Virus record (IMG/VR): IMGVR_UViG_3300042922_001062
Span: 15,478-79,477 of that record
DNA length: 64,000 nucleotides
Reading direction: 5' to 3' (one strand)
Source: a virus
The stretch's first letter is position 1. Every line of letters begins with the position of its first letter. A program made the position numbers and the translations under genes. The notes beneath the pieces were generated by a model, which did not search any database, was not told the origin of the DNA, and saw only the letters and a program-made list of their open reading frames with translations. Positions 10,885 to 31,720 of the stretch are shown here, one piece after another.

Positions 10885-10887
10885 AGA

Positions 10888-12485: not shown

Positions 12486-12597
12486 GGGGGGAGGGTCAAA
12501 AATCGACCATGGGTCAACCTACGGACCGGCGCCCCCTACATGCAGAGATTTTTTCCTCCCTGGACAAATTTCGGGGTGCGTACCAGCACTGCGTACT
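12486..12597. other. Putative helper cos/packaging initiation region
   Basis: Intergenic, between HNH and terS: G-run, GTCAAAA, ACCGGCGCCCCC, AGAGATTTTTT and TGCGTAC repeats; copied in the satellite. Confidence 0.75.
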
Positions 12598-12601
12598 GCC
12601 G

Positions 12602-13171
12602 ATGAGCGATCAGAACTCCACCATCGACTGGCCGGCGATCGAGCGTGATTTTCGTGCTGGATCAATGTCTAACCGCCAACTCGCTGATTGGTACTCGATC
12701 TCGGAAGGCGCGATCCGCAAGCGGGCGAAGAAGGAAGGTTGGACGAAGTCCGGTACGCAGCCGAAAGTGCGTACCGAGAGCGCGCACCGCGCTCCTCTCG
12801 CTCCGACGCCCACAACACCGGAGACCACTGCGCCGGAGGCCATTGTCAGCCGGGGCCGCAATCTCACGCTCCGGCTTCTCGACGAACTCGAGGCCACCAC
12901 CAGCCGCATCGGCGAGCTGGAGATGATGATTGACGCTGTAGCCGACGGTGAAGACGCAGAAGAGCAACGCAAGGTCTTGAAGCAGATCATCTCGCTCAAG
13001 CAGCGCGCTGAAATCCTGAAGTCGCTCGCGCTGTCGGCAAAGACCCTTTCCGAAACGACAACCGCCGCTCCGGCCGGCAAGAAGGCCGAGAAGCAAGCCG
13101 CTGCGGAGAGGGTGGCAAGCAAGTTCGGTGTCCGTACCCCGCCTAAGCTGGTGGTCGACAACAAGCCATGA
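12602..13171 (+). CDS. terS: Terminase small subunit
   Basis: [21 protein letters not shown]...[17 protein letters not shown]; overlaps the terL start. Confidence 0.82.
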
Positions 13172-14847
13172 AGCCGTGGTCCACTGCCTGTCCTGATTGG
13201 GAACGACGGATCGTTGCCAAGCAGTCGCTGATCCCGTTCGCGCCGCTCTTCCCGTCGGAAGCAGAAGCCGCCCTGGAGGTCTTCAAGGCGCTGAAGATCG
13301 TCGACGCTCCTGGCAGTCCAACATTCGGAGAAGCCTGCGAGCAGTGGGTGTTCGACTTCGTCGCCGCCATCTTCGGCGCGGCGGATCCGGAGACGGGCTC
13401 CCGGCTGATCCGAGAGTTCTTCCTGCTGATCAGCAAGAAGAACAGCAAATCGACGATCGCGGCCGGCATCATGCTCACTGCCCTGATCGTCAATTGGCGC
13501 CTCTCGGCGGAGTTGCTCATCCTGGCTCCGACGATCGAAGTCGCCGACAATTCGTTCAAGCCGGCGGCCGATATGGTCCGCCACGATGAGGAACTCTCAG
13601 ATCTCCTGCATGTGCAGGACCATATCCGAACCATCACGCACCGCGTCACCAAGGCCTTCCTGAAGGTGGTCGCTGCGGACGCTGACACAGTGTCCGGCAA
13701 GAAGGCCGCCTTCGTTCTCATGGACGAGCTCTGGGGTTTCGGAAAGAAGCCGCGCGCTGCTGCGATGCTGCGAGAGGCGACGGGTGGTCTCGTCTCGCGG
13801 CCGGAAGGCTTCGTGATCTATCTCTCAACCCAGTCCGACGAGGAACCCGCTGGCGTCTTCAAGGCCAAGCTGGACTATTTCCGGGGCGTTCGCGAAGGCA
13901 CGATTGTCGATCCGACTAGTCTGCCGGTGTTGTATGAATTTCCGGAGCCAATGGTCGAAGCGACGTCGTATCTCGACCCGGCGAACTTCTACATCACGAA
14001 CCCCAACATCGGACGGTCAGTCGATCGGGGCTGGCTGGAAGATGAATATCGCAAGATCAAGGATGCGACCGGCGGCGAGCTGCAGGTCTTCTTGGCGAAG
14101 CATCTGAATGTCGAGATCGGTCTCCGCCTCGCACAGGATCGTTGGTCAGGAGCCGGCTATTGGCCTCGCTGTGCCCACCCGGCGCTGCGCGACCTCGATG
14201 TGTTCCTGGGCCGCTGCGACGTTGTCGTCGCGGGTGGTGACGGTGGAGGTCTCGACGATCTCTTCGGGCTCGTTTTGATCGGCCGTGACCGCGATACGCG
14301 AAAGTGGCTCCTTTGGGCGCACGCGTGGGCGCATCCTGACGTGCTTGAGCGCCGACAGGAAATCGCTCCGCGGCTGCGAGATTTCGAAGCCGAAGGCTCG
14401 CTCACCATCTGCAAGCACCCGACACAGGATCACGAAGAGATCGCTGCCATTCTTCAGCGGGTTCATCGCGCGGGGCTTTTGCCGGAAGAAGCTGCGATTG
14501 GACTTGATCCCTTCGGCGTGACCGCTCTCATCGACGTGCTGATCGAGGCGGGCATCAGCGAAGACCAGATCATCGGTATCGCTCAGGGCTACAAGCTGAA
14601 CGGCGCCGTGCTTGGCCTGGAGCGCAAGCTGGCCGACGGCACCGTCGAACATGACGGCTCGACCATGATGAACTGGGTGGTCGGCAACGCGAAGGTGCAG
14701 AAGCGCGGCAATGCCGTGCTGGTGACCAAGGAAATCGCTGGCAAGGCCAAGATCGATCCACTCATGGCGGCCTTCAACGCAACGATGCTGATGGCGCGTA
14801 ATCCCGAGCCGAAGCAAACCCCTTCCTATCAGATGATCATCATCTGA
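13168..14847 (+). CDS. terL: Terminase large subunit
   Basis: ISKKNSKS Walker A, MDELW Walker B, STQ coupling motif, GDGGGLDDL and KIDPLMA nuclease motifs. Confidence 0.95.
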
Positions 14848-14876: not shown

Positions 14877-15976
14877 ATGAACCGGATGTATTCGGTCCTC
14901 ACCGTCAAGGCGGTGGAGGATGACCAGCGCATTATCCGCGGCACCGCCACCACGCCGTCGCCGGACCGCATGGGCGATATCGTCGAGCCGCTCGGCGTGA
15001 CCTTCCAGAACCCGCTGGTGCTGCTTCACCAGCACGACAGCGACCGGCCGGTCGGCACGGTCACCTTCGACAGGCCGACGGCGAAGGGCATCACCTTCGA
15101 GGCGAGGCTCCCGACGATCGAAGAGCCCGGGCCGCTGAAAGACCGCGTCGACACCGCCTGGGGCGAGATCAAGGCCGGCTTGGTCCGTGCCGTCTCCATC
15201 GGTTTCCGAGCGCTCGAATACTCGTGGATGGATGATGGCGGCATCCGCTTCATCTCCACCGAGGTGCTCGAGCTCTCTCTCGTCTCCGTTCCGGCCAACG
15301 CCGAGGCGGTGATCTCCACCATCAAGTCGATCGACGCCCCTGTGCTCGCCGCGACCGGCAAGGGGCCGAAGGCGTCCGATCGGCCTGCACCTCCCGGCGT
15401 CTCGGGGAAATCCGTCAAACCAGTGAACCTGAGGCCGAAGGAGGCCAGGACCATGAAGACCATCGCTGAGCAGATTGCTGCTCTCGAAGCGTCGCGGCAG
15501 ACCAAGGCCGCGCGCATGGCTGAAGTCATGCAGAAGAGCATCGACGAGGGCCGCTCGACCGACGCCGCGGAGCAGGAGGAGTTCGACACCCTTGAGCAGG
15601 AAGTGTCCGCGCTCGACGGCGACCTCAAGCGCCTCCGCGCGCTGGAGAAGGCGCAGGCCGCCACCGGGAAGCCGGTGATCGCCAATCAGATCCGGACGGC
15701 CGAGCAGGGCACCACCGCGCGTTCGGGTGTCACCCTGAAGTCCGCGGCGCCGGATAAGGGCATCCGCTTCGCGCGGTACGCCAAGTGCCTCGCCATCTCC
15801 ACCAAGACCCATCAGTCCGTGGTGTCGGTGGCCGAGGCCATGTACGGCGGCAAGGATGACGACTTCATCGACATCGTGAAGGCCGCTGTCTCGGCGATGA
15901 CCACCGGCAACACCGATGCGCTCATCGGCAACGAGGGCGGTTTCGCCGACTTCGTGGAATTCCTCCGCCCGATGAC
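14877..15976 (+). CDS. Prohead protease-major capsid fusion, 5' part (interrupted by the satellite; reads on to a stop at 16004)
   Basis: HK97-type protease motifs DRMGDIV, LLHQHD, AVSIGF, ELSLVSVPAN, then coiled-coil delta domain and capsid start. Confidence 0.92.
15959..15976 (+). repeat. attL core (18-bp direct repeat)
   Basis: ATTCCTCCGCCCGATGAC, identical to 31721-31738. Confidence 0.95.
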
Positions 15977-16024
15977 GAGTGTCAACCAAGCGGTCGCGAT
16001 TTAGCGAACACTTTCAATATGTTG

Positions 16025-16049
16025 AGCCCGGCCGTGCGCCGGGCTTTTT
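16025..16049 (+). terminator. Rho-independent terminator just inside attL
   Basis: AGCCCGGC-CGTGC-GCCGGGCT followed by TTTT. Confidence 0.82.
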
Positions 16050-16079
16050 CGTTTCCGTAGTGTCCACAGCGTTCAAGAA

Positions 16080-16092
16080 AATCAATGGCTTA
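16080..16092 (+). promoter_or_regulatory. IHF binding site (second, one-mismatch site at 16012-16024)
   Basis: AATCAA-TGGC-TTA matches WATCAA-N4-TTR exactly. Confidence 0.65.
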
Positions 16093-16114
16093 CACGGGCA
16101 CCCGGTGCCTCCAT

Positions 16115-16132
16115 GCGACAAATGAGCGACAA
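16115..16132 (+). repeat. Putative integrase arm-type sites (left arm)
   Basis: GCGACAA twice, 11 bp apart; the same arrangement occurs at 31669-31686. Confidence 0.65.
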
Positions 16133-16152
16133 CGTAATCGAGGGAACTGGCT

Positions 16153-16425
16153 GTGAACGCGACAAAAAAAGCCGAAGGTGAAATCCTCTACGGGGTAAAG
16201 GCCATCGCGAAGTTTCTCGGGGTGACGCGCCGGCAAGCGCAACACCTCGTCGACTCCAAGGCGGTGCCAAGCTTCAAGATGGGGCGGACGGTGTGCGCCC
16301 GGCCCGAGCGGGTGCGAAGCGTGATTGAAGCAGCGGAGAACGGCAGGGCCGCGCCAAGCGATCAGGTGGACCAACCGCAGGACGGCGGGCAGCTTAACCT
16401 TCTCGGCGGCGGCGAACATGGCTAG
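16153..16425 (+). CDS. AlpA/excisionase-like HTH protein
   Basis: [19 protein letters not shown]...[13 protein letters not shown]; paralogue of 29218-29613. Confidence 0.75.
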
Positions 16426-17482
16426 CGCCAGTATGCTCCCGATCGTCACGGTGTCGAATGGCATCGTGATTGCCTCCAGCCGCGACGTGGCGGCCTATTT
16501 CGACGCAGACCATCGCGTGGTGCTGCTGGCGATCGATACGCTCATGGTTGAGGCCCCCGACGTAGCCGAGGCACACTTCCGCGAGCACCACGGCGAGGCC
16601 AGGCACTACGACATGACGCGCGGTGGCCTAGCGCTGCTGGCGCGCTCGCTGAGCGGTCCGCAGGTCGGGCGGTGGCGTGAGCGCTATCTCGAAGCCTTCG
16701 ACCGCCAGCAGCGCGCGCTGGGGCAGGGCAGCGCGCTCTCGGTGCGTCAGCATCAGCCGAGTCCGTCGCCGGCGTTGGTGCCTGCCCTGCCGGACAACCT
16801 TGCCGATGGTGAGCCTCTCACGATGTCGAGCCGGGAGATCGCCGACCTCACCGGCAAGGAGCACGACAACGTCCGCCGGGACATCAAGAACCTCGCGGAT
16901 GGGCTTTCCCTCAGCTTTGAGGAAAAGTCCGAACCGTCGGCAGGCGGGCGCCCCTCGAAGGTGTTTCTCCTTCCGAAGCGTGAGTGCCTGATCCTCGTCT
17001 CGGGGTACAGCATCGAGCTGCGTGCCCGTATCATCGATCGCTGGATGGAACTTGAGGTGCGGCAGGCGGACCCGGTGGCGATGTTCAACCCGTCCGATCC
17101 GCGCATCGTGTCGGCCGTGCTGTCCCATTGGCATCAGGAGGCCACGACGGCACACGCAGCGCTTGCCAAGGCCGAGGGCACGCTGGCGCGGATCGAGACC
17201 ACTGCCGGCTCTCTCTGCATCACGGACGCTGCGAAGGCGCTCTCGCACCCGCCCAAGGCGCTGTTCGCCAAGCTCTACCGCAACCATTGGACCTATCGGC
17301 GCGGTGGCAAGGGCGATTGGCTGGGCCATGCCGACAAGTGCCGTGCCGGCCTGCTGGATCACCAGCCTACGACTTATCAGCGTGACGGCGAGACGGTGAT
17401 CGGCACGCAGGTCGTCGTGACACCCAAGGGATTGCGGAAGCTGGCCGAGCTGCTCGCTCACGATCCGGATTGGAGGGACTGA
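16418..17482 (+). CDS. Antirepressor-like protein: two Rha-type domains plus a KilA-C (ANT) domain
   Basis: [31 protein letters not shown]...[29 protein letters not shown]...VTPKGL. Confidence 0.85.
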
Positions 17483-17709
17483 TGCCCGACATCATCGACG
17501 TCGACTGGGAATGCTGTGACGCCGAGGGTGAATCCTTTGAGCACCACGCCGAGCCGGACAAGGTGGCGGAAGGCCTGCTGATCGACGAGCCAGTGCTGGT
17601 GCGCTACCCCAACGGCCGTATAGCTGATGGCAACCGCATCGTGGTGACGGAGCGTGGCCTGGAGGCGCTGAAGTCCTTCGTCATCGAGGAATCGAAGGGC
17701 AGCCACTGA
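17482..17709 (+). CDS. Small protein resembling the KilA-C C-terminus
   Basis: RIVVTERGLEALK versus [13 protein letters not shown] in the upstream gene; TGATG coupling. Confidence 0.5.
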   Translation: MPDIIDVDWECCDAEGESFEHHAEPDKVAEGLLIDEPVLVRYPNGRIADGNRIVVTERGLEALKSFVIEESKGSH

Positions 17710-17820
17710 GGGGGGGAGGTCAAAAGGTCAGACGGCGTCCGTCTCTGGACCGGCGCCCCCTACATGCAGAGATTTTTTCCTCCCTGGACAAATTCGGGGT
17801 GCGTACCAGCGCCGCGTACT
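17710..17820. repeat. Satellite copy of the helper putative cos region
   Basis: 17747-17820 matches 12523-12597 at 72/75 positions; upstream G-run and GTCAAAA also conserved. Confidence 0.9.
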
Positions 17821-17919
17821 ACGTAATATCCATATGATATCAGGCAGATAGCCTCGGTACGCACCCTGCGTACCGCGCGTACTAAGTGCGCACTGCGTAC
17901 CACTGATAGCAGAGGCCCC

Positions 17920-17995
17920 GGGGGGGTATGCGGAACGTCAGGGACGCCCTTCTCTGCACCGGCGGCCTCACCAAAACTCTCGCAAAGCCAGATTG
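17920..17995. other. Second, diverged cos-like element
   Basis: G7 run, GTCAG, TCTCTGCACCGGCG with the same G-run to ACCGGCG spacing (38 vs 39 bp). Confidence 0.55.
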
Positions 17996-18005
17996 AGGTC
18001 CCGGA

Positions 18006-18377
18006 ATGTCTAATCTGGCTTCCGAGATGAGCTTCGCGGCGCGCGTCGATGAGCGCGAGCGGATGATGCTGCAGGCGATCAGCCATGCGGGATGGTGGAT
18101 GTCGCCCGACGGCCGGATCGGCGAACGGGATGCCGCGGCGCTCCTGGGGTACGGACACCCGGATTCATTCCGGAACGCGAGACGTCGCGCGGATCCTGGT
18201 GGGTGGCCACGTGTATTTCGCCTCGGCGGGAACGGAAACAAGCTGACCTATCAGGTCCGAGATCTGGCGGAGTTCGTCGAGCGCAAAGCAAATCCGCCGG
18301 CCGAAACCTACGATATTTTCCGCAAAGTCAATCGCGCGGGATCGGCGCTCTCCGACGCCCGTCGTAAGCTTGCTTGA
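18006..18377 (+). CDS. Putative DNA-binding protein (MerR/AlpA-like HTH)
   Basis: IGERDAAALLGY...SFRNAR...GGWPRVFR...LTYQVRDLAEFVE. Confidence 0.6.
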   Translation: MSNLASEMSFAARVDERERMMLQAISHAGWWMSPDGRIGERDAAALLGYGHPDSFRNARRRADPGGWPRVFRLGGNGNKLTYQVRDLAEFVERKANPPAETYDIFRKVNRAGSALSDARRKLA

Positions 18378-19426
18378 CCTTGATAAGGAGCGAGCTGATG
18401 CGCATCAATTCCGCCGGACACCTGCCCGCGATCATGGGCTTTCTCGCCCGGGCGCACCTTGCCGGTGTTTCGCCCTTGGAGATCGCGGCGAAGGATGGTG
18501 CTCCGCCCGACCTTCAGCTCCTCGTCAGGGCTGCGACCGGTGCCGTCATGCTCGGCGACGTCGCTGCTGCTGGCGCGCTGCGCGCGGCGGTCGAAACCTT
18601 CATCGGGACGCTGCGCGGGCGCTCCATATTCTACACGCTCCTCGCTGATGGCGCGTTCGTCCGCGCGCCGATCCGCACACGGCTCACAGCAGTCGAGAAC
18701 GGCGTGGTCGCCTACGTCGTGAGCGAGGGGCGTGCGAAGCCGGTTTCGAGGATCGGGCTCGACGCCGCGGGACTGGAACGCGCCAAGGCCACTTCGCTCA
18801 TCGTGCTGACGCGCGAGGCTGTGTACGCATCCTCGCCGGCGCTGCTCGACTTCCTGACCTCTGAGCTGCAGGGCGCGGTCTCGGCGGCCGTCGACGCGGC
18901 CTTCATCGCAAGGATCATCGACGACGGCTCGCCGAGCCTCACGCCGACCTTCAGCGCGTCGGGAGCGGGCATCGACGACATCAGGTTTGACCTCCGGCGA
19001 CTGCTCGACGCCGTGAACGTCACGGGCAGCGGCCATCTGGCATGGCTGATGTCGGCAGACGTCGCGAACCGCCTCGCCGTGCTCGTGGAGCACTTTCCCG
19101 GTATGGCGCCGAACGGTGGGACATTGCTCGAGCAGCCGGCCTTCGTTTCCGAGGCCATCGACCCGGGCTCGCTGCACTGCCTCAACGCCGCGTCGATCGC
19201 GGCGGACAGCGAGGCCATCATCGTGCGGTCCAGCGACGTCGCCAGCGTCGTTATGGATACCGCCCCAGCGCAGGACAGCTCCACGCCGGCGGCGACGCAG
19301 AACGTGTCGATGTTTCAAACCAACTCGACCGCCGTGCTCGCGGAGGCGTTTTTCGGAGCGCAACGGGTGCGGCCGAACGCGCTGGCGACGCTGACGGACA
19401 TCGCCTGGGGCGACGTGGCCTCATGA
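18374..19426 (+). CDS. Satellite HK97-fold major capsid protein paralogue (no protease domain)
   Basis: Aligns with the helper capsid: FIGTLRGRSI/FVEFLRPMTI, VSEGRAKPV/VGEGKGKPL, QD...VSMFQTNS.A..AE. Confidence 0.85.
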   Translation: MTLIRSELMRINSAGHLPAIMGFLARAHLAGVSPLEIAAKDGAPPDLQLLVRAATGAVMLGDVAAAGALRAAVETFIGTLRGRSIFYTLLADGAFVRAPIRTRLTAVENGVVAYVVSEGRAKPVSRIGLDAAGLERAKATSLIVLTREAVYASSPALLDFLTSELQGAVSAAVDAAFIARIIDDGSPSLTPTFSASGAGIDDIRFDLRRLLDAVNVTGSGHLAWLMSADVANRLAVLVEHFPGMAPNGGTLLEQPAFVSEAIDPGSLHCLNAASIAADSEAIIVRSSDVASVVMDTAPAQDSSTPAATQNVSMFQTNSTAVLAEAFFGAQRVRPNALATLTDIAWGDVAS

Positions 19427-20250
19427 GCAGGGTCGATCCCGCTACCGCAGCAGCGCTGAATAAAATTGACGTCCGCGTCGCGGAGATCGACGCCGCGCTC
19501 AAACGCCTCGACGCTGATGACTACAAGCACTTCAAAGATTTGCACCGCGCCGGTGCAAACGAGAAGGTGCGGCAGCAGCTCAACGCGGAACGCGCGGTGC
19601 AGATGCACAACCGGGCGCGGGTGCTCGCAGGCGAGCCGGTTGAACAGCCAGCACCCACGGAGCAGGCCAAGGCACTGCGGCTGCCGCCGGTGGAGCTCTA
19701 TGGCAAGGCCGAGCGACCCTGCAGAATCGAGCCAGCCATTACCCGCAGAGACGACTTGGTCGGCGTTGGCGATAGAACCGCCGATGAGATTCTCGATGTC
19801 GCCGAAGTTGAAGAGCGCGTGTCAGCGGACATCGCGCAGGCGATCGAGGTCGCCCACGCCAAGATGCGGGAGGCAATGACGCGCAATCCCACGTACGCGT
19901 TCGACTTGTCGACGCTGATCATGCTGAAGACCACCATCATCCAGGCGATGGCGCAGGCGACAATCATCGAAGCCGTCGGCGGTGTGCTGCGGCGCGAGCT
20001 CGAGGTGAAGCTCACCGATCGGATCGCAGTGCTGGAAAAGCGGATCGAGGAGTTTGAGCGCGGCGGCTTCGAGTATCGCGGCATCTATCAGCGCGCCCAA
20101 GCCTACAGACGAGGTCAGGTCGTCACCCATGACGGAAGCATGTGGGTGGCCGCCAAGGACACCGTGCTGCCGCCGGGCGCGCCGGAAGGCATGAACGAGT
20201 GGACTTTGGCCGTTAAGCGTGGCCGGGACGGGAAGGACGCCACCCGATGA
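19423..20250 (+). CDS. Coiled-coil protein with a C-terminal domain paralogous to the helper collagen-like head protein
   Basis: YRGIY....Y.RG.VVT.DGSMW...WTLAVKRGRDGKDA versus helper YRGVF....Y..GDTVT.AGSLW...WTLAAKRGRDGKEA; ATGA coupling. Confidence 0.8.
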   Translation: MSRVDPATAAALNKIDVRVAEIDAALKRLDADDYKHFKDLHRAGANEKVRQQLNAERAVQMHNRARVLAGEPVEQPAPTEQAKALRLPPVELYGKAERPCRIEPAITRRDDLVGVGDRTADEILDVAEVEERVSADIAQAIEVAHAKMREAMTRNPTYAFDLSTLIMLKTTIIQAMAQATIIEAVGGVLRRELEVKLTDRIAVLEKRIEEFERGGFEYRGIYQRAQAYRRGQVVTHDGSMWVAAKDTVLPPGAPEGMNEWTLAVKRGRDGKDATR

Positions 20251-20432
20251 AAGAGCAAGCCGTCGCCCTAACGAAGCGGTGCGTTGCGGCCTTCGTCGAG
20301 AAGATGGGCAGGCAGCCGGATGCGCACGAGCTCGATCTGCTCGCTGCGGCCGCGTGCCGGCATCTCCAAGACCGCGAGCACATGCGCCGATGGCCCGCCG
20401 CGACGGCGTCCGGATCTTCCACGGTGAACTAG
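20247..20432 (+). CDS. Small hypothetical protein
   Basis: ATGA-coupled 61-aa ORF. Confidence 0.45.
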   Translation: MKEQAVALTKRCVAAFVEKMGRQPDAHELDLLAAAACRHLQDREHMRRWPAATASGSSTVN

Positions 20433-20466
20433 CTCAAGCCTAGACCTCATAGCCTTAGGTGAGGCG

Positions 20467-20757
20467 ATGCCAAACTCAGAGATGCTCACAACTTACTCCC
20501 ATGGTACCGTTTCAGTGACCAAGGGATCAAAGACCGTCCGGGGCAAAGGCGTTTTCTGGCTGGACGTGCGGTCGTGCGACAGCCTCGAAGCCGGGGACCG
20601 CTGCCTCACCACCATCGCCTCAGTAGACGCGACCGATTTCACCACATTGGAGCTTGCTGTGCCTTGGTGCGGCGAGACAGCGGAGGACGTCCCTTACGTG
20701 ATCCGCTTCGACGCTCCGCAGCGATTTCCCGGCTACAGGGGGCGCGCCGATGGCTGA
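20467..20757 (+). CDS. Stand-alone tail-fibre N-terminal (anchor) domain paralogue
   Basis: YSHGTVSV...TIAS...LELAVP....DVPYVIRFDAPQRF matches the first ~80 aa of both fibres. Confidence 0.75.
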   Translation: MPNSEMLTTYSHGTVSVTKGSKTVRGKGVFWLDVRSCDSLEAGDRCLTTIASVDATDFTTLELAVPWCGETAEDVPYVIRFDAPQRFPGYRGRADG

Positions 20758-21847
20758 CCTCTACAGCACCGGCACCGTCTCGGTGCCCAGCGGTGGCACG
20801 ACTGTTACGCTGACCGGGGGGCTCTTTAGCGGTGTTCTCGCCGGCGATACGATCGAGATCGGCGAGCTTCCCGCGAAGACGATCGCATCGCCGACCGACG
20901 CCAGTCATCTGGAACTGGCCGTCGCGGTGACGTCCGATCAGGTGGATGTCCCCTATGTGCTTCGCTTCGACGCCCCGTCGCGCTTCACCTCCGGCTATCT
21001 CGCGGAGCAGGTGCGGGCGCTGATCGCGCAGGCGGGCATCATCAAGGCCGCCCGGCCAAACTACGAGGTGCAGAGCCTCGGCGGCAACGCACCGCCTGGC
21101 TCTCCTGTGACGGGAGACATGTACGTCGTCGGCACCGCGCCGACCGGCGCATGGGCTGGGCGGGCGAATAATTTGGCGCAGTGGACCGGCTCGGCGTGGC
21201 TGTTCACAGCGCCGGATCGAGGAACGACGGTCGTTAGCGTGGCGACGGGTATTGTGTCGATCTGGGGCGGCGCGGCGTGGCTACCTTACATAGGCCCTGG
21301 CGCTTTCATGCAGACGCTGATGCCGGCGGCGACGCAGGCCGCGGCGCAGACTACGCTTGGGCTCGATAGGGCCGCCCGCACGCTCTGGACGGCGGATATC
21401 TCCACTCCTGTCGCGGCGATTAACGTCCCGCTCGCGGCGGCGTATCGGGCGTTCAAGCTGACCATCGGCTGCCTCACCGGCTCGGATGCGACAGCCAACT
21501 TGATACACCGCATCAGCCGCGACGGGTCCACGGTCGACACGGGTGCATCGGACTATCAGGGGTCTGCGCTTGTTGTCGTGGGTAGCGGAGTTTCCGCGGC
21601 GGCGCGGACGGCGTCGGATGCGTTTCTCGGCACGTTGACGGCCACGATGGTAGCAATGGACATCACGCCTGGCGCGGCCGGTCTGCCGTACATGTGCACT
21701 TCCCAGTCTATGGAGTTCGCCTCTGGATATCGTCTTGATTTCCGCGGTACCCGTGCCGCGAATGTCGGGCGCGCTCAGTTCATCCAGATCTACCCGTCAG
21801 CCGGCAATCTGACTGCTGGGACGCTGACGCTGGCCGGGTATCCGTGA
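20750..21847 (+). CDS. Satellite tail fibre / receptor-binding protein (DUF2793-like module, distinct C-terminus)
   Basis: First 177 aa are 153/177 identical to helper fibre 49412-50605; the C-termini are unrelated. Confidence 0.9.
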   Translation: MADLYSTGTVSVPSGGTTVTLTGGLFSGVLAGDTIEIGELPAKTIASPTDASHLELAVAVTSDQVDVPYVLRFDAPSRFTSGYLAEQVRALIAQAGIIKAARPNYEVQSLGGNAPPGSPVTGDMYVVGTAPTGAWAGRANNLAQWTGSAWLFTAPDRGTTVVSVATGIVSIWGGAAWLPYIGPGAFMQTLMPAATQAAAQTTLGLDRAARTLWTADISTPVAAINVPLAAAYRAFKLTIGCLTGSDATANLIHRISRDGSTVDTGASDYQGSALVVVGSGVSAAARTASDAFLGTLTATMVAMDITPGAAGLPYMCTSQSMEFASGYRLDFRGTRAANVGRAQFIQIYPSAGNLTAGTLTLAGYP

Positions 21848-21892
21848 CGCCCGCCGCCGGGCTTCGAGGTGGTGGCTCGGCGGTCAGATATG

Positions 21893-21918
21893 AAAAAGGC
21901 CGCCCCGAAGGGCGGCCT
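21893..21918 (-). terminator. Terminator for the minus-strand moron (possibly bidirectional)
   Basis: AAAA-AGGCCGCCC-CGAA-GGGCGGCCT. Confidence 0.75.
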
Positions 21919-21932
21919 CTCTCACCGTCCGG

Positions 21933-22250
21933 CTAGCACGGTGTCTGCTTATTGGTGCAATCGCGACGGCCGTCATCCGAATTGCCGCTGCCGGCGGCCT
22001 TGGCCTCGCCGGGGTTCATGGAGTTGTTGCGCCCCTCGCTGGGCATGGTCGATTTCGGCACACCGGAGCCAACGGCCGGGGACTGGTCCTTGTAGCGGCT
22101 CTCGGTGGTGCCCGAGCTATTGTCGGAGCCGGTTGTAGCTCCCGCCGTGGAACCCGAGTTCCCTTGGCCGCTGCTCTGGGCCATCACAGGTGTGCCGAGC
22201 GCCAGTAATGCTGCCAGCGTGGCGATGGAAGTCGTCTTGGCATAGTTCAT
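21933..22250 (-). CDS. Small secreted Ser/Gly/Thr-rich protein (moron)
   Basis: Signal peptide ending PVMA-Q, low-complexity body, C-terminal CxxxxxxC; AGGAGG RBS. Confidence 0.75.
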   Translation of the reverse strand: MNYAKTTSIATLAALLALGTPVMAQSSGQGNSGSTAGATTGSDNSSGTTESRYKDQSPAVGSGVPKSTMPSEGRNNSMNPGEAKAAGSGNSDDGRRDCTNKQTPC

Positions 22251-22274
22251 GAGTTCCTCCTTCGATATGAGGCG

Positions 22275-22299
22275 AACCCACAGCTCTAGATGACGTTCC
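22275..22299 (-). promoter_or_regulatory. EcfG/sigmaT-type promoter
   Basis: Minus strand GGAAC-N16-GGTT, 25 bp upstream of the start codon. Confidence 0.72.
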
Positions 22300-22464
22300 G
22301 ACCAAATTGGCCGCTGAGGTACACGGCTAATGCACCTCGCGCCAACGTGAGCACTTTCCTGCCAGGCGGCTATGTCGATTTATTCCTTCCGCGAATCGTC
22401 AATCATCGCCTCGATGGCCCCGATCATCACTTCGAGGTCGGCGATCAGATGCAGTAACGATTTG

Positions 22465-22578
22465 CTCGACTTCCGCGGCACCCGCATCGCCAATCCAGGC
22501 CGTGCGCAGTTCATCCAGATATACCCGTTCGCCGGTAATCTGGCAGCCGGCCCTCTCACGCTGAAGGACATTCTGTAG
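22465..22578 (+). pseudogene. Orphan 3' end of an alternative tail-fibre allele
   Basis: 114-bp diverged duplicate of 21734-21847 (LDFRGTR.AN.GRAQFIQIYP.AGNL.AG.LTL). Confidence 0.8.
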
Positions 22579-22589
22579 GAGCATCTCAC

Positions 22590-23027
22590 ATGAACATTCT
22601 GGACGTCGACGGCGTGATCAAGCCGGCCGACCCCGCCTGGATCGCCCAGCGCGCGCTTGACGCCCTCCCGGTGGCTCCGACGCCAGCGGACGTCATCGCC
22701 GAGCGCGAGCGGCGCCTGGCCCTCGGATTCGCCTACGACTTCGAAGACGAACGCGGCGTGCACCACATCGCGACCACCCCGGAAGACATGAAGGGCTGGG
22801 ACGAGGTGACCATGCTCGCCAACGCCGCCATCAATGCCGGCGTGGCGGCGACCGAGATCCTCATCCTCACCAGCACCGGCCCGGTCACCGTGACGGCCGC
22901 CGAGTGGCAGCAGGTGCTCCTCGCCTCGGCGAACTTCCGCCAGCCGATCTGGCAGACCAGCTTCGCGCTGCAGGCGATGGACCCGATCCCGGCTGACGTC
23001 ACCGACGACGTGCACTGGCCGGATTGA
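22590..23027 (+). CDS. Tail fibre assembly/chaperone-like protein (DUF4376-like)
   Basis: DVIAERERRLALGF...IPADVTDDVHWP; AGGAG RBS; follows the fibre 3' end. Confidence 0.7.
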   Translation: MNILDVDGVIKPADPAWIAQRALDALPVAPTPADVIAERERRLALGFAYDFEDERGVHHIATTPEDMKGWDEVTMLANAAINAGVAATEILILTSTGPVTVTAAEWQQVLLASANFRQPIWQTSFALQAMDPIPADVTDDVHWPD

Positions 23028-23231
23028 CCTCCCAAGCGCCGCACGGTCATGACCGCTCGAGTTGATGGGCCGCGCTTGGTCTATTCGGGCACGAGGAAAG
23101 CCCAGCAGAATCCTGATTATCCACCACTGGCCGGAAGAGATCGGAAAGGCCGCTGGCCACGGCAGTAGCGGCTTGAACAAGTCTCGCCCGGCGCGCCACA
23201 ATTGCGGATGGGCATCCGAATCTGTACCGAC

Positions 23232-23879
23232 ATGCAATGCGTCGTCGACTGGCTCTACACGTGGCAGACGCTCATCTCGGGCGTGTTGGCACTGGGGGCG
23301 GCGGCGATGACTGTGGGGCTTCTGCGGATCCAGATCGAGGACGAGCGCGCCCGACACCGTTCCCAGCGGATAGCTAAGACATTGGCGGCCCGAGCGACGT
23401 TGCCAGATGCCCTGAGCGACATCGCGCGATACACCCGGGAGTGCATGGCTTATCTCGTCGGCAAGCGAGCCGAGCCACCGTTGGCGCCGGCCGACGGGAT
23501 AGCCGCGATCAAGGGCGCAATTGAATTCTGCGATGGCGACCCGGCCACCGCTCTCTTCGCTCTCGCCAGCTATTATCAAGTCCAACGAGCCCGGCTGGCG
23601 GAACATCGAGTTCGCCGAGGTCCAGAAAATCTGGACCGAATGCGAGATTGTGCGCACCTCAGAGCGCTGAGCGATCGGCTATTCGATTACGCTCGAGGAG
23701 AAGGCCTCGATGTTCGGACGGGTCGGCCGGATCCTGAAGAAGTTGTGAGGGCACTTGGCCAGATCGTCGGGCCTGGACCCATGATGACTCGTCCGAACGA
23801 ACGTGCTCGGCTCGAGGCCTGGATAAGAGGCACTCCCTTACGCCCCGACGACGAAGATGAGGCCGAGGAAGACGAGTAG
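23232..23879 (+). CDS. Membrane-anchored hypothetical protein (satellite cargo)
   Basis: WQTLISGVLALGAAAMTV N-terminal TM helix; acidic tail. Confidence 0.65.
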   Translation: MQCVVDWLYTWQTLISGVLALGAAAMTVGLLRIQIEDERARHRSQRIAKTLAARATLPDALSDIARYTRECMAYLVGKRAEPPLAPADGIAAIKGAIEFCDGDPATALFALASYYQVQRARLAEHRVRRGPENLDRMRDCAHLRALSDRLFDYARGEGLDVRTGRPDPEEVVRALGQIVGPGPMMTRPNERARLEAWIRGTPLRPDDEDEAEEDE

Positions 23880-24170
23880 ACGTCGGCTTGGCGGGTGCTC
23901 GCCTCCACGGTCTCTCTCGATCCCCGATGCCGCCGAATTGACACTGCTGCCGATCATGATGAACGTGTAGTGGCGGCGTAGGCGCCATGCCGGGCGAGAG
24001 CCTCGGCCTGGCCCTGCAGATCCTGACGGCTTTCCTATTCGGAGCGGAACAGGAGTAGGGACTGCCTCAGAGAATCTTGATTTACGTCCCTATAGTCCGG
24101 CCGCCTTGCGGAGCGCGGCATTGATGCGATCCTGCCAGCCTGGCCCGTCCGAAGACGAACCTTAGTTCGT

Positions 24171-26600
24171 TCAGGCAGCCGCAGGCTTTTGCCGAGCCAC
24201 GTACATTGCCATAGGCACGCACGGCAAATGGTGATTCGAGCTCGACATGAGGAGCAATCGGTTCACGTTGTTGTCCTGGAACCCGCCGATCCGTATCACC
24301 GATTGCAGCCATCCGATGGAATGCGGCACTCTGGCCTTCTTGATAAGGCGTTGGATGGCTGTCCTACTTCGGGAATGTCGCGCCGCCAATTGCGCTTCGA
24401 AGTTTGGCTTCACTTCTTCCGCCTTCAGAGACTTTAGGTAGTTGAACGTGCGACGGATCACCGATCGGAACTCGACGAATTCAGGTGCTTCTCTCAAGCT
24501 AAGGATATCGTCGCACTGGGTCGGAAACTCCAGTGGGGCTGACCGGATGTCTGCCGCAAGCGAATGTAGCGTCGATGAAGTTCCCAAATAGCGGCGGTTC
24601 AAAGCTGCGTTCAGCTCCAGCCAACGATGCTTGCTGTCAGTGAGGATCTGCGCCCCCGTGGCTTGCGCCAAATACATGGCGATTTCGAAGTTGGGTGCCA
24701 ACTTCATGAGCTGGATCTGTCCACCTGTTTCGGGAGCCAAGCTCTCCGGTTGGAGCACGGCAAGCGGGTCGGCCTCTCGGAGCTGGCCGATTTGCGGCAT
24801 CAGTTCGTCGAGATCGACTGTTTCGCCCTGCGGCATTGCTCGAGCGATCTGATTGCGTAGCCCCTCTTCGGACAAAGCGAGGAGTGTGCGCTTGAAGTCG
24901 TCGCGCATCAGTTCCTCCATCCGAGGGTCGTTTGAAATCTCGAACTCAAGGCCGGATGCCCGCGCCCTGGCCATCGCCATCATTTGATCGCGCAGGTGGA
25001 TGTCGAAGTCACAAGGATCGGGGATCAGGTTGACCAGACCCGCCTCGACCAACGGCATCATGCTCACGAAGAAATGGATCGTCTTCAACAGTTCGCCCCG
25101 GTACTGACCCGGGTGCTCGGTCGGACGGAATTTCTTATTCAGGGTGCCGGGGTGGACGAAAGGGTGCTGAATCAGCATTTCACCGAAATACAGCGGCGAA
25201 CCAATCGCGAATTCGTTGATGTGCTGGGGATGGAGGGAGCCGGTATAGACCGATCGAAGCTGCCCGTCCGGCTTTGGGAGTAAGTCGAGCAGGTCGGTTT
25301 CCAGTGGCCATAGGCCTTCGTAAAGGCTATAGGCACTTGCAATCTTTTCGTCGGTCATCTCGCGCCGAACTTGGGTCCAGTCCTTTCTGTCCAGTTCAAG
25401 GAGGTTCGACAAGCCGCGGAGAAGCATAAGGTTTCGCTCGCGGATGCTCCTAGCCGTCCAGCTCGGCCTTAGCTCGGATGGCTTCGGCTCGCAGCATCTG
25501 GCGAAGAGGTCGCCGGACCCACAACCACAAGAGTCCTTCGGTTTCAGCGGTGACACCGGCAGATCCTTTTGAAGGAACGCGCGCGGCTTTTCTGACCGGC
25601 CAAACTCATCCTGATAGTGAACATGTCCGCTGTCGAATTTGGCAAACATTTCACCGCCAAAAAGGTGGAGTTCGGTCTCTGGTGGTCGTAGTGTCTCCCG
25701 CAACTCCTTCCAAGATTTCTTCACCGTTTTCTCTGGATAAAGCCATGCCTCGCGTCCAGCAGCGATGTATCTTTCGGAGCGAGCCTTGAGGATGAAGTTG
25801 ATCTCCGAGACTTGTTGATCATCGAGTTCGCGAGACCGGATGAAATCGATCGTCGATACCATCGTCGGATGAAAGTTCCGAGCGAAGGTCCGGTTCTCAA
25901 GCGGATTCACGTCCGGGTTCTTTGCATACTCAAGATTTGTCAGGATCAGGCAGTGGTCTGGTCCCAGAGGGAAGATGGTCTGCGAACCTTTCCATGCAAT
26001 TGCCGGATCGTCGGTTTGGTCGCAACCAAGGTCTGCGGGAGGAGCAGCATAGTTATAAATCGTTACCGGATGGTCGGTAATGATGAACTTGACAGAGGCA
26101 TTTCCCGCCGAGACAATCTCCCGGACGCCAGTGGTCCAAATGGTACAATTGAGAAAACGAATACCCTGCATCTCAAGCATAAGCTCATTCTGGGAAAGCT
26201 CAGGGTACTGTCGCTTTAGCCACTCTAGGCCCTTTGGAGTGCGAAGCTTTTGGATGTCGATATACTCGAAAAAGGTCTTGAAGTGGGAGTGCCATGCGGC
26301 CTTGTCCAAGCCAGAGAGGGCGCGGACCGCGTCCGCGCCGCGGGTGTCAATGTCGCCGAATAGTTGTCGCTCGATTTCATCGTTTACCGCCGTTCCAAAG
26401 AATGTTGAATAAAGATCCCTTTGAACGAACGCACGGGATGTTGGAGAGTCAAACAATGACCGCCCTGTGTTTTTTCCTCCATCCCTCCGTGTGAAAATCG
26501 GCGGTGACAAGTCGAGATAGAATAAGGTTCTGCCTCCGTCGGTGAGGAAGCGTTCTTGATACCATTGGGGAACGTAGTGATTATTTCTTCTTACTGACAT
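24171..26600 (-). CDS. DUF4238-domain protein with a SEC-C-like motif (candidate anti-phage)
   Basis: N-terminal HYVPQWY, FIITDHPV, IFPLGP; central CGCGSG..FARCC; AT-richer codon usage. Confidence 0.75.
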   Translation of the reverse strand: MSVRRNNHYVPQWYQERFLTDGGRTLFYLDLSPPIFTRRDGGKNTGRSLFDSPTSRAFVQRDLYSTFFGTAVNDEIERQLFGDIDTRGADAVRALSGLDKAAWHSHFKTFFEYIDIQKLRTPKGLEWLKRQYPELSQNELMLEMQGIRFLNCTIWTTGVREIVSAGNASVKFIITDHPVTIYNYAAPPADLGCDQTDDPAIAWKGSQTIFPLGPDHCLILTNLEYAKNPDVNPLENRTFARNFHPTMVSTIDFIRSRELDDQQVSEINFILKARSERYIAAGREAWLYPEKTVKKSWKELRETLRPPETELHLFGGEMFAKFDSGHVHYQDEFGRSEKPRAFLQKDLPVSPLKPKDSCGCGSGDLFARCCEPKPSELRPSWTARSIRERNLMLLRGLSNLLELDRKDWTQVRREMTDEKIASAYSLYEGLWPLETDLLDLLPKPDGQLRSVYTGSLHPQHINEFAIGSPLYFGEMLIQHPFVHPGTLNKKFRPTEHPGQYRGELLKTIHFFVSMMPLVEAGLVNLIPDPCDFDIHLRDQMMAMARARASGLEFEISNDPRMEELMRDDFKRTLLALSEEGLRNQIARAMPQGETVDLDELMPQIGQLREADPLAVLQPESLAPETGGQIQLMKLAPNFEIAMYLAQATGAQILTDSKHRWLELNAALNRRYLGTSSTLHSLAADIRSAPLEFPTQCDDILSLREAPEFVEFRSVIRRTFNYLKSLKAEEVKPNFEAQLAARHSRSRTAIQRLIKKARVPHSIGWLQSVIRIGGFQDNNVNRLLLMSSSNHHLPCVPMAMYVARQKPAAA

Positions 26601-26657
26601 TGCCCTTTAGCATCGCTCCCGCCGCTAGTTGCTGCAATTCTTACCGGCTTGGGCGAA

Positions 26658-27920
26658 TTAAGGATGGCCTCGCAGCGCGATCATCTTGTTCGCGACACGG
26701 GCGGCCAAGTCGGAATGAAACTCCTCAAGGCTCTCCGCGGCTTCGATGAGGGCTTCGTCGGCACCGTCATCGTCCATCGCTTCGACCAGCTGCTCGACCT
26801 GTTGCGCAAGCTCTTCGAGCGCCTGATAGAGCCGGGTGCATTGGTCCAGAGTGAGCGACGGGTCGGCGAGGGCAGCGGGGACATCCTTGGCGAGATGCTT
26901 CGCCCTCTCGCCGCGCTCGCGCAGCAAAGTCATCCAGTCCGTCGCCATGTCGACGCGCTCCAGCAAAGCCGTCAGCTCCGCCCGTTTCAGGGTCGCCTCG
27001 ATAGTGGTCTCCTTCAACGCAGGTCCGCCGGGGCGGTGGGGGGACGTGACGGCCGCCCGAACGGCCAGTGCGCTCGATGGTGGCGCAGCGCCGATCGTGG
27101 CCATGAAATCCCCTTCGGGCACGATGCGCACGATATGGCCGGCGGCGAGCATGGCTTCGGCCTTGAGGTGCTTCGCGCTCTTGGGCGTGCCGAAATGCAC
27201 GTCTCGATCGCCGAGCACGAGCATGGTGGTGTGGCGGGTGACGCCCGGATGAACGTCGGCGCCAGCGGCCGCGGCAAGATCGGCCGCGGCGCTCTTGCCG
27301 AGCTCCAGCTTGCCGGTGAACACCACGACCTGGCCCGACAACGGCCCGTCGCCGACAGCCTCTCGGCGGATCGGAGCCGCCTTCTCGCCGGAGACCGGCA
27401 GTTCAACGCGGCGGAACCAGCCGTCCAGGTCCAGGCCGGTTTCTTCCATGGCGCGGTGCAGGATCACGCCGGCGGCGCGCGCGTCCTCAAGAGCGTCGTG
27501 GTGACGGAAGGCGATGCCGAACTCGGCGGCAATGATCGGCAGGCTGTAGCTCGCCCTGTCGGGCCATGCCCGCCGGGCGACGCGGATTGTGTCGAGCCAG
27601 CGGTTGCCGACGGATGCCAAGCCATGGCGATCGCAGGCCCGCATCAGCGACGTCCGGTCGAAGGGTCCATGGCTGATAACGGGCCGGTCACCGAGAGCAT
27701 TGAGAAGCCAGTCGTGCCGGTGGCGGAAGGGCAGGCACCCCGCGACGGCTTCCTCGTCGATGCCATGAATGCCGACGTTAAAGGCGTCGAAATAGTCCTC
27801 CGGGTCGATGAGGTGACATTCGGCGTGGATCTCTCTGCCGCCATCGAACACGACGACGCCAAGCTGGCAGATGCTGCTGTAGTTCGCGTTCGCGGTTTCT
27901 ACATCGATCGCGACGAACAT
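26658..27920 (-). CDS. DEDDh 3'-5' exonuclease plus BRCT domain and helical C-terminal extension
   Basis: IDVETAN, HHDALEDA; BRCT pattern LSGQVVVFTGKL...GVTRHTTMLVLG. Confidence 0.85.
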   Translation of the reverse strand: MFVAIDVETANANYSSICQLGVVVFDGGREIHAECHLIDPEDYFDAFNVGIHGIDEEAVAGCLPFRHRHDWLLNALGDRPVISHGPFDRTSLMRACDRHGLASVGNRWLDTIRVARRAWPDRASYSLPIIAAEFGIAFRHHDALEDARAAGVILHRAMEETGLDLDGWFRRVELPVSGEKAAPIRREAVGDGPLSGQVVVFTGKLELGKSAAADLAAAAGADVHPGVTRHTTMLVLGDRDVHFGTPKSAKHLKAEAMLAAGHIVRIVPEGDFMATIGAAPPSSALAVRAAVTSPHRPGGPALKETTIEATLKRAELTALLERVDMATDWMTLLRERGERAKHLAKDVPAALADPSLTLDQCTRLYQALEELAQQVEQLVEAMDDDGADEALIEAAESLEEFHSDLAARVANKMIALRGHP

Positions 27921-27991
27921 GGCTCCCTCCCATACCTTCCGGAAGGTTGCACATCGGCTCCGTTCACGGCAAGCGCGCCTGTTCTGCGACG

Positions 27992-28840
27992 CTACTCGGT
28001 GAGCAGCCCCGCCAAACGCCCCTTTGCGATAAGATAGCTAACAAAGGAAGCGCACGCTCCCAGCATGAACAACGCGTCAGCCTCGTCGACGTTCGCGGCG
28101 TCTTGGTCGAGCAGCGAGTGCCGTATGCCTTTCTCGTCGCTGGCATAGCCATAAAGGGCCGAGAATCCTTTCTTCATTGCCTCGTGGATGGCGCCAGCCT
28201 TTTCCAGTTTGACCAGAGCGGGGCCAAGTGTAGTCGATCCCGGCGCTAGCTGTACTGCGACCGCTTCAACAGCATGGATAGCTTCGCGCACGCAGTCCGG
28301 ATACTTTCCTGCAGTGGCAGCTTCTATCGAGGACCTCAAATGGGCATAGGCGCCGGTGATGCCGACAGCGCGTGCGGACTTGAGTGCTGCTTCGAGAGCT
28401 GCAGCCTCCGTCGGATCGGTTATGGGGGCAATAGTATCCCCGTCGACCACGCGATAAGCTGCGTGACAATTAACTAAAACGTCGGCAATATGCTTGCGGA
28501 ATGCGGCTGGCGTATAATTGAATCTTAGTATCCATTCAATAAATCCAAAAACTTCTACGTAGTCGCCGTTCTCTATAATTGTCTGAATTCGTCGTATTTG
28601 TTGAAAGTGCAAAGAAATGTATTCACTAGAGAATCTATTTTGATGAAATACAAACTCCGCCTTGAGAATTGCATTCCATGGCTCGGCAACGGTGTGGTCG
28701 CCGCGCCTTGGAAGAACATGCATGTCGAACACGAAGAACAATTGAGCCCTCAGTTGAGGGGAAAGTTTTTTCAAGGCGAGTTGCGTTGGTAACGGTGCGC
28801 GACCTTCGGCTTGCTCAAAGGAGACTAATTTCCTGTCCAT
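27992..28840 (-). CDS. AbiJ-NTD4-like / HEPN-like abortive-infection candidate
   Basis: SFEQAEG..PLP.QL..LRAQL N-terminus; C-terminal EAIHAVEA, LYGYASDEKGIRHS. Confidence 0.7.
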   Translation of the reverse strand: MDRKLVSFEQAEGRAPLPTQLALKKLSPQLRAQLFFVFDMHVLPRRGDHTVAEPWNAILKAEFVFHQNRFSSEYISLHFQQIRRIQTIIENGDYVEVFGFIEWILRFNYTPAAFRKHIADVLVNCHAAYRVVDGDTIAPITDPTEAAALEAALKSARAVGITGAYAHLRSSIEAATAGKYPDCVREAIHAVEAVAVQLAPGSTTLGPALVKLEKAGAIHEAMKKGFSALYGYASDEKGIRHSLLDQDAANVDEADALFMLGACASFVSYLIAKGRLAGLLTE

Positions 28841-28911
28841 GATCCGCCCCACTTCCAATGCGTGGCAACCTGCCATTGGAGTACCGGCAGCGCAATGAGC
28901 GCCTTCGCGAT

Positions 28912-29064
28912 CCCCTCTTGGCGGAGGGGGCGAAGCAGCGCATAAATGGGATTGGGCTTGAACACCCGGACGAAAGTTATAGCGCGACGCCCTTGGCGGG
29001 GCTTGGCGCCGAAGCACAGCGCCCTTGGCGGGGCGGTGTGCAAGGTCGCACCTTGGCGGGTGCG
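28912..29064 (+). repeat. Four hairpins with an identical TTGGCG loop
   Basis: CCCCTC/GAGGGG (28912-29), GCCC/GGGC (28989-29002), CGCCC/GGGCG (29020-35), CGCACC/GGTGCG (29047-64). Confidence 0.8.
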
Positions 29065-29080
29065 CCGGACCTGGCCATCA

Positions 29081-29167
29081 TGGCCGGGAGCGGTGCGCTA
29101 TGTCCAGAGGGTACGCCCTTAAAAGCGCGTCGGCCTGTAACTTTCGCAGGTGTTCAACTCCCGGCTG
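29081..29167 (+). ncRNA. C4/CI-type antisense RNA with upstream a1b1 and downstream a2b2 targets
   Basis: Closing stem GCCGGGAG/CTCCCGGC; TAACTTTCG and GGTGTTCAA are complementary to CGAAAGTTA/TTGAACACC (28958-79) and TTGAACA/CGAAAGT (29191-210). Confidence 0.75.
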
Positions 29168-29217
29168 CCGGTCTGCTACCGGCGACGGCCTTGAACAGCC
29201 GAACGAAAGTACATCCC

Positions 29218-29613: not shown

Positions 29614-29615
29614 TC

Positions 29616-31713: not shown

Positions 31714-31720
31714 GAAAAAT

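Follow-up and report, generated by a model that had tools for sequence, protein, structure and literature searches.

A tail fibre gene on a prophage-embedded satellite shares its anchor with the helper fibre and encodes an unrelated tip

The 64,000-nt stretch of DNA analysed here (hereafter the window) comprises positions 15,478 to 79,477 of the IMG/VR record IMGVR_UViG_3300042922_001062, a viral contig from a soil metagenome, and contains two tail fibre genes. One open reading frame (ORF), at 20750-21847 (+), encodes 365 aa and lies on a 15,762-bp integrative element that has the features of a phage satellite (15977-31738, +). The other, at 49412-50605 (+), encodes 397 aa and belongs to the prophage into which the element is inserted, which we refer to as the helper. 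An earlier note on this DNA had described the N-termini of the two fibres as identical at 153 of 177 residues without gaps, with one identical run of 45 residues, and had called their C-terminal parts unrelated. BLASTP aligned residues 1-180 of the two proteins with exactly that number of identities (153/180, 85%), zero gaps and an E-value of 7e-107, and the identical run appears in the alignment as residues 67-111. Past residue ~180, BLASTP found no significant similarity between the satellite and helper fibres, in agreement with the note.

The same break is visible in the DNA. Positions 20760-21280 align with 49422-49942 (82.3% over 521 nt), and blastn found no other match between the two halves of the window (1-30300 and 30301-64000). 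Counted in blocks of 30 nt, identity between the two genes is 20-30 of 30 before nt 540 (codon 180) and 7-13 of 30 beyond it. Pfam DUF2793 (PF10983) spans residues 106-177 in both proteins (61.8 bits in the satellite fibre and 57.5 bits in the helper fibre, against a gathering cut-off of 27 bits), and the break between anchor and tip is therefore a domain boundary. Fibres of the family can recombine at this natural junction, where the DUF2793 knob ends.

Both fibres belong to the DUF2793 tail fibre family. In the satellite fibre, a beta-domain (residues 1-72) is followed by a rod helix (76-100), the DUF2793 knob (103-182) and a variable tip (181-365); the helper fibre, which matches the tail fibre family phrog_2712, has the same architecture over its N-terminal 180 aa and another C-terminal tip. 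AlphaFold2 modelled residues 11-180 of both proteins with a predicted local distance difference test (pLDDT) score above 90 and with a common secondary structure of beta-domain, helix and beta-rich knob. Upon structure comparison, the knob of the satellite model (residues 103-182) matched residues 33-112 of the R4C fibre (8gtc_T) with a Z-score of 11.3 and a root-mean-square deviation (rmsd) of 2.1 Å over 79 aligned residues at 23% identity; the row after it had a Z-score of 9.1 and an rmsd of 8 Å. In the solved R4C fibre, an N-terminal rod binds the fibre-binding domain of the megatron protein and is followed by the knob and by a C-terminal lectin-like foot that binds carbohydrate (PMC10276861). 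The comparison supports a correspondence between the shared 180 aa and the particle-proximal rod and knob of R4C, with the difference that the fibres described here have an extra N-terminal beta-domain of ~72 residues ahead of the rod.

Other members of the family have been linked to host recognition. The DUF2793 proteins DMS3 gp49 and JBD26 gp59 are virion proteins that decide pilin/pilus specificity, and the authors of that work hold that the conserved N-terminus attaches to the particle and that the variable C-terminus contacts the receptor (bioRxiv 10.1101/150227). Rcc00171 of the Rhodobacter capsulatus gene transfer agent (RcGTA) contains DUF2793 and is listed among the RcGTA genes for host recognition (PMC5026251). 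Our searches found 67 proteins, ~45 of which cover just the first 42-62% of the satellite fibre, at 44-85% identity, and differ from it in their C-termini. The assignment of an N-terminal anchor and a C-terminal tip, made in the earlier note, is thus well founded on the family, the R4C knob match and the DMS3/JBD26 literature. The helper tip matches the gp47 tail fibre in PDB entry 9b45 (E 1.4e-9); a PDB sequence search with the satellite fibre gave no match. Foldseek returned nothing for the fibre tips at an E-value of 0.001 or better, and the ESM Atlas returned only unnamed viral clusters for them (TM-score 0.82-0.85), which we regard as a lead rather than an identification.

The element that carries the first fibre is bounded by 18-bp direct repeats (ATTCCTCCGCCCGATGAC; 15959-15976 and 31721-31738). 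It divides the helper protease-capsid gene into a 5′ part (14877-16004, +), which covers positions 10-372 of the prohead protease-major capsid fusion family phrog_617, and a 3′ part (31734-32612, +), which covers positions 368-626. The tyrosine integrase gene of the element (30391-31713, +; phrog_1, E 4.9e-58; Pfam Phage_integrase, 78 bits) ends 7 nt short of the right repeat. In silico excision of 15,762 bp, comprising one repeat copy and the interior, yields a 657-aa ORF that is collinear with the 667-aa gp03 of Pseudomonas phage PAJU2, which carries the annotation prohead protease fused capsid protein (residues 2-647 align with 4-664 at 50% identity), and also with the capsid protein of Rhizobium phage RHph_X2_26. 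At the restored junction, FVEFLRPMT is followed directly by IVGRFGT; the PAJU2 counterpart is FVEYLRPQTILGRFGT. Without the element, the helper has the gene order of PAJU2 (terS, terL, fusion gene, small ORF, portal), and the protease-capsid fusion gene is unbroken in ~50 related viral contigs.

We also found the empty site. In Logan contigs of three other public runs (X2, X3 and X6), position 15958 runs directly into 31721, with 18 nt of overlap and exactly 15,762 bp missing; of 1,159 flanking bases, 4 differ from the window. Runs X2 and X3 come from one plant-metagenome study (P2) and X6 from another study (P3). In X2 and X3 the empty-site helper is present at depths of 14 and 6.8, together with near-identical short pieces of the satellite at a depth of ~2-4 and with diverged variants (~92-95%) of the fibre anchor, of the small-gene region and of the 145-aa gene described below. 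In the source run, six contigs at a depth of ~39-47 cover the element and its two junctions and are identical to the window. Taken together, the repeats, the integrase, the restored gene and the empty-site contigs show that the element is a real mobile insertion and is polymorphic in nature. The earlier note was accordingly right to place the fibre on a satellite, as it lies on a discrete integrative element with satellite features inside a prophage that encodes another fibre. We note in addition an intrinsic-terminator-like hairpin at 16024-16052 (GCCCGGCC...GCCGGGC then TTTTTCGTTT), located after the stop codon of the truncated helper capsid ORF and just inside the left end of the satellite, where it would stop helper late read-through unless antiterminated.

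The ORFs of the satellite, apart from 16153-16425 and 22372-22578, were scanned against PHROG and Pfam. Within 15977-31738, these scans identified no terminase, portal, tail, baseplate or lysis genes; they gave only the capsid homologue, the fibre, Ant/Rha, the integrase, an exonuclease, and AbiJ-like, DUF4238 and helix-turn-helix (HTH) proteins. Four small ORFs had no match in the scans; 29852-30283, which was scanned twice, gave none.

The satellite fibre is the last gene of the satellite capsid operon. Between 18006 and 21847 the ORFs follow closely on one another, and stop and start codons overlap at four of the five junctions: the overlaps are 4 nt among e_123, the capsid gene, e_275 and e_61, and 8 nt between e_96 and the fibre. 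The capsid homologue in this overlapping operon (18374-19426, +; Pfam Phage_capsid, 32 bits) is 32% identical to the capsid part of the helper protein. The fibre ORF itself is intact over its 365 codons and shows a coding signal in third-position GC content (GC3) along its whole length. Upstream of the operon, 17747-17820 (+) holds a 75-nt copy (96%) of helper positions 12523-12597, and the helper original lies just upstream of the likely terS start (~12602); the PHROG terS match begins at residue 45 of ORF 12479-13171. This repeat could be a cos/pac site or a late promoter or other regulatory site, and it is the one lead on helper-dependent induction, packaging and transfer of the element. 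A promoter and terminator consensus scan of 17400-23300 found nothing above shuffled expectation.

Remnants of an older fibre lie on both sides of the intact gene. The 96-aa ORF immediately upstream (20467-20757, +) is a truncated older fibre N-terminus that corresponds to approximately residues 1-80 of the fibre; by tblastn it is 50% identical to the translation of 49400-49648, and the alignment stops at the motif RFDAPQRF. Downstream, a 99-nt remnant (22465-22563, +; 76% nt identity to 21734-21832) preserves the last ~33-37 codons of a fibre of the same tip family and directly precedes a chaperone-like gene of 145 aa (22590-23027, +). Between the intact fibre and the 3′ remnant are a GC-rich hairpin (~21893-21921) and a convergent small gene (21933-22250, -), which encodes 105 aa with a signal-peptide-like N-terminus and has no Pfam match. 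The absence of baseplate and tail genes from the satellite, the position of the fibre at the end of the capsid operon and the flanking fibre stumps together make the locus look like a captured and subsequently replaced late-gene cassette.

The earlier note had further claimed that each fibre has its own downstream chaperone-like gene, and this claim needs qualification on both sides. The 145-aa product of the satellite resembles DUF4376 (E 4.6e-5) at 24.3 bits, under the Pfam cut-off of 25, and its gene is not adjacent to the fibre. The helper genes at 50518-50910 and 50907-51251 matched no family of known function.

In the helper, the fibre gene is the last of a baseplate set consisting of Dit, a hub with a phiJL001 Gp84 attachment domain, DUF6950, an 838-aa central-fibre/megatron-like protein and a 459-aa protein. 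The genes for the last two (45501-49399, +; Pfam Phage-tail_3 and Phage_Tail_Tip; phrog_5616) also precede the fibre in the same order in contigs L007-L010. Their products are the likely docking partners of the fibre anchor, and the satellite has no counterpart of them. Rather than standing downstream of a central-fibre/megatron gene, the satellite fibre follows the capsid gene and small ORFs, which is a difference of context and not a property of the protein.

One of these contigs, L007, bears on the origin of the tip. It is a helper-like phage contig whose 838-aa homologue is 71% identical to that of the helper, and it has the order 838-aa gene, 459-aa gene, fibre, 145-aa homologue. The L007 fibre is 46% identical to the satellite fibre over residues 32-365 (tblastn), and the gene directly after it is 80% identical in amino acid sequence and 90% in nucleotide sequence to satellite 22590-23027. 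This arrangement indicates that the satellite tip is a genuine, though rare, phage fibre tip with its own accessory gene. The simplest history would be that the satellite once had a fibre and an accessory gene arranged as in L007, and that the middle of the old fibre was then replaced by a cassette consisting of a new complete fibre with a helper-type knob and a cargo gene. A fibre that was renewed rather than lost provides mild evidence for function.

Among the family members returned from a search of 5.8 billion proteins, each of the two anchors is the best match of the other (85%), the next being at 74-76%. Between satellite and helper, the ratio of nonsynonymous to synonymous divergence (dN/dS) of the anchor is 0.11-0.12 at a synonymous divergence (dS) of ~0.75. 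These values suggest that the anchor is conserved under purifying selection, and much of the divergence may predate capture. We considered the low dN/dS (other pairs, 0.24-0.47) as a possible sign of co-adaptation between satellite and helper, and dropped this idea on finding that the anchor is a mosaic by blocks; we do not claim convergence.

To date, the satellite fibre with a helper-type anchor is a single instance in our data. A search of viral contigs with the satellite capsid protein alone gave nothing. A wider survey compared a seven-sequence capsid alignment with contigs from genomes, viruses and metagenomes, a small sample that includes short contigs. Nearly all matches were ordinary phages with an intact protease-capsid fusion, and a stand-alone satellite-type capsid gene was found only in L012, L068, L071, L011, L070 and L080. 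The closest relative of the satellite capsid is P0075, at 54% identity. The earlier note had proposed surveying related satellites for diversity of their tips; the loci with a stand-alone capsid gene gave no fibre from which such diversity could be read.

One surveyed locus may be a related satellite. In L012, a contig of a metagenome-assembled alphaproteobacterial genome (CAWBFP010000009.1), positions 2357-13545 hold an integrase gene and small ORFs, together with a 545-aa ORF, a capsid homologue that is 43% identical over the C-terminal part, and a 112-aa ORF whose C-terminal domain is of the e_275 type; no DUF2793 fibre was found there. A second locus, L069:356-2307 (Ga0207659_10088422), carries a satellite-type capsid gene (42% to 18374-19426), two ORFs of 80 aa and a helper-type capsid gene. 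We examined it as a second helper-embedded junction and rejected it, as the helper-type capsid gene that follows the satellite-type one stands alone, is uninterrupted and reads through the sequence equivalent to the attachment site. These tandem capsid paralogues raise the question of whether a "satellite-type" capsid is always satellite-borne.

Based on these data, we hypothesize that an intact DUF2793 fibre gene has been captured into the late operon of a helper-embedded satellite that resembles a phage-inducible chromosomal island (PICI) and has no tail of its own. On balance we think it likely, with modest confidence, that the satellite fibre is made with the capsid proteins, docks on helper baseplates via the shared anchor and adds or substitutes a different tip. 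Upon induction, the helper would supply the terminase, portal, tail tube and baseplate. As the N-terminal beta-domain, rod and knob are of the helper-fibre type, trimers of the satellite fibre would occupy the baseplate sites of the helper fibre, probably by docking on the 838-aa central-fibre/megatron-like protein, and would display another C-terminal tip, whose folding the 145-aa protein would assist. As tails are drawn from a common pool, satellite and helper particles would carry both fibres mixed, and transducing particles would thereby gain a second receptor specificity. Since heads are assembled apart from tails, the effect would extend to the virions of the helper. Late expression, incorporation into tails and altered host range are the steps that we infer here.

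A more far-reaching form of this hypothesis is that the satellite actively re-targets the tails it steals, so that the satellite, and the helper via mixed tails, reach cells that the helper alone cannot. The anchor would be renewed by recombination when the helper lineage changes, and one renewal of this kind would have left behind the 50%-identical anchor stump and the 3′ stump. We put this forward tentatively, as a possibility that we would not at present expect to hold in full.

Several observations weigh against a role for the satellite fibre on helper tails. A dS of ~0.75 means that the anchor is not a recent copy from the present helper. In the block analysis, codons 1-90 are synonymously closer to L007 than to the helper, and only codons 91-180 (the knob) are helper-type and unlike L007; the anchor therefore matches a phage group and not uniquely the present helper. 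The single instance noted above is joined by the absence of a DUF2793 fibre from the flanks of L012, L068, L071 and L011, which have enough flanking sequence, although the satellite status of these loci is not established; L070 and L080 likewise show no fibre, within a set in which some contigs are short. The 145-aa gene starts 742 nt past the fibre stop codon, behind the convergent small gene and the hairpin. As for the tip, its relatives other than the L007 fibre are only two proteins at 31% identity, and the AlphaFold2 models of both tips are poor (pLDDT below 50 over residues 209-365 of the satellite fibre and mostly below 55 in the helper tip). With a tip so modelled and so few relatives, receptor binding by the satellite tip is a putative function assigned from its place in the fibre.

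Some of these observations would be expected if the fibre were passive cargo, that is, one of the late genes that PICI-like satellites acquire from helpers by recombination, without a role in transfer and heading to decay. The late zone of helper-embedded PICIs (HE-PICIs) is dynamic and contains captured helper late genes (PMC10111431), and the fibre stumps that scar either side of the locus, the uncoupling of the chaperone-like gene from the fibre and the lack of a fibre at other loci with a stand-alone satellite-type capsid gene all fit such a history. A decaying gene is harder to reconcile with an intact ORF of 365 codons that shows coding GC3 signal throughout and that, like other genes of the operon, begins within the preceding ORF. 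Moreover, the replacement of an old fibre by an intact new one argues that a fibre was kept, and the anchor is under purifying selection, even if much of its divergence may predate capture. We consider passive cargo rather unlikely, and a real contender nonetheless.

The fibre could instead act against the helper. In that case it would compete for helper baseplate sites, perhaps jointly with the 96-aa protein that consists of an anchor only, and would lower the infectivity of the helper on the local host, which is among the means by which satellites depress helper yield. The anchor is of the same type as that of the helper fibre, the stand-alone anchor stump remains an open frame, and satellites commonly reduce helper yield (PMC10111431). 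Tails are, however, common to both particles, and a poisoned tail would be as harmful to the satellite as to the helper; the 96-aa ORF, for its part, stops at a recombination scar and shares only ~50% identity with the helper anchor. Interference of this kind therefore seems improbable to us. That there is no satellite at all, and that we are looking at a mis-assembly or at an ordinary mosaic prophage with two fibre paralogues, is very hard to credit: the record is a metagenomic contig and the 75-nt repeat locally confuses the assembly graph, giving a joint that goes back from 17820 to 14800 in source-run contigs, but the precise skip in three other runs, the six source-run contigs that tile element and junctions without differences, the integrase abutting the junction and the collinearity of the restored gene with PAJU2 gp03 all contradict it.

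Satellites are generally held to inherit the host range of their helper, since the tail is borrowed. If the fibre does act on helper tails as we propose, a satellite-encoded receptor-binding fibre would uncouple host range in a simpler and more modular way than the exchange of whole tails, and would constitute a third route to satellite control of host range beside capsid remodelling and whole-tail swapping. It would also allow a satellite to change the adsorption phenotype of the helper's own virions.

The element shares several features with the HE-PICIs described by Tommasini, Mageeney and Williams in 2023 (PMC10111431), which are found most often in the capsid gene: it carries a capsid homologue of its own and a Bro/Ant-type gene, its late zone includes late genes captured from helpers, and its size is within the 10-20 kb range. 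It differs from them in that the helper head-gene order is PAJU2-like (terS, terL, protease-capsid fusion, portal), that the relatives of the helper fibre come from Ancylobacter, Microvirga, Devosia and Xanthobacteraceae, with Ancylobacter, Starkeya or Microvirga indicated as the host group, and that the integrase gene is placed at the downstream end, facing outward; the scans found neither a clear AlpA nor a primase. The case thus extends helper-embedded satellites beyond the lambda-type late-gene sites at which they were first mapped.

Compared to the DUF2793 fibres of RcGTA, DMS3/JBD26 and R4C, the two fibres have the same knob, conserved N-terminus and hypervariable C-terminus. The helper copy alone shares the position downstream of a central-fibre/megatron gene; the satellite copy is different in lying away from baseplate genes, on another mobile element than its prospective tail. 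The nearest parallel is RcGTA, whose fibre gene is also outside the main structural cluster.

Two further systems bear on the comparison. MiniFlayer, a satellite of Streptomyces phage MindFlayer, also encodes its own tail fibre (PMC10690885). Unlike the element described here, it is non-integrating and has a virulent helper, its short fibres are reported to bind the helper neck and not to replace the helper receptor-binding protein, and no anchor shared with the helper fibre has been described (PMC10690885). The chimeric particles of capsid-forming PICIs (cf-PICIs) likewise uncouple host range from a single helper via a changed adsorption apparatus (bioRxiv 10.1101/2025.02.11.637232). There, capsids join whole tails of different phages and no fibre is encoded, whereas here the tail of the helper would be kept and just its fibre replaced.

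Helper-embedded satellites, DUF2793 fibres and one fibre-bearing satellite (MiniFlayer) are thus already published. Our literature searches found no integrated satellite without tail genes that carries a fibre with its helper's anchor, and tail fibres are unmentioned in a large satellite census (PMC10085698) and in the HE-PICI paper (PMC10111431). The view in the earlier note that a fibre of its own is unusual for a satellite fits the literature searched, with the reservation that MiniFlayer encodes one (PMC10690885) and that HE-PICIs capture helper late genes (PMC10111431).

The remaining genes of the satellite include a Rha/KilAC anti-repressor-like gene at 16325-17482, upstream of the capsid operon. 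Within the operon, the 275-aa protein (19423-20250) shares only a C-terminal domain with a 506-aa collagen-like protein of the helper; this domain of ~55 residues is 50% identical between the two. The helper protein (34149-35669) is encoded after the portal gene and has collagen-like G-x-D-G repeats, with internal DNA repeats at 34800-35171. The satellite may therefore also carry a head- or neck-fibre-like protein of its own. On the minus strand, genes for an 809-aa DUF4238 protein (24171-26600), a DnaQ-like exonuclease with a weak BRCT match (26658-27920) and an AbiJ-like protein with the AbiJ N-terminal domain (27992-29017) form a block of low GC content (0.56-0.61) that looks like defence genes or cargo. 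An HTH protein is encoded at 28858-29613 (weak HTH_17 match, E 0.005); beyond this match, the scans of the satellite showed nothing clear for AlpA, and no primase was recognised.

Elsewhere in the helper, the early region (1-9303) encodes a beta-clamp fragment, whose ORF is cut by the start of the window, and a complete DnaA-like protein, as well as an MT-A70 methyltransferase and an SNF2 helicase. Past the endolysin gene (52635-53303), GC content falls to 0.56-0.60 over 54000-64000, a region with methyltransferase-like and glycosyltransferase-like ORFs that may be the right end of the prophage or a cargo region.

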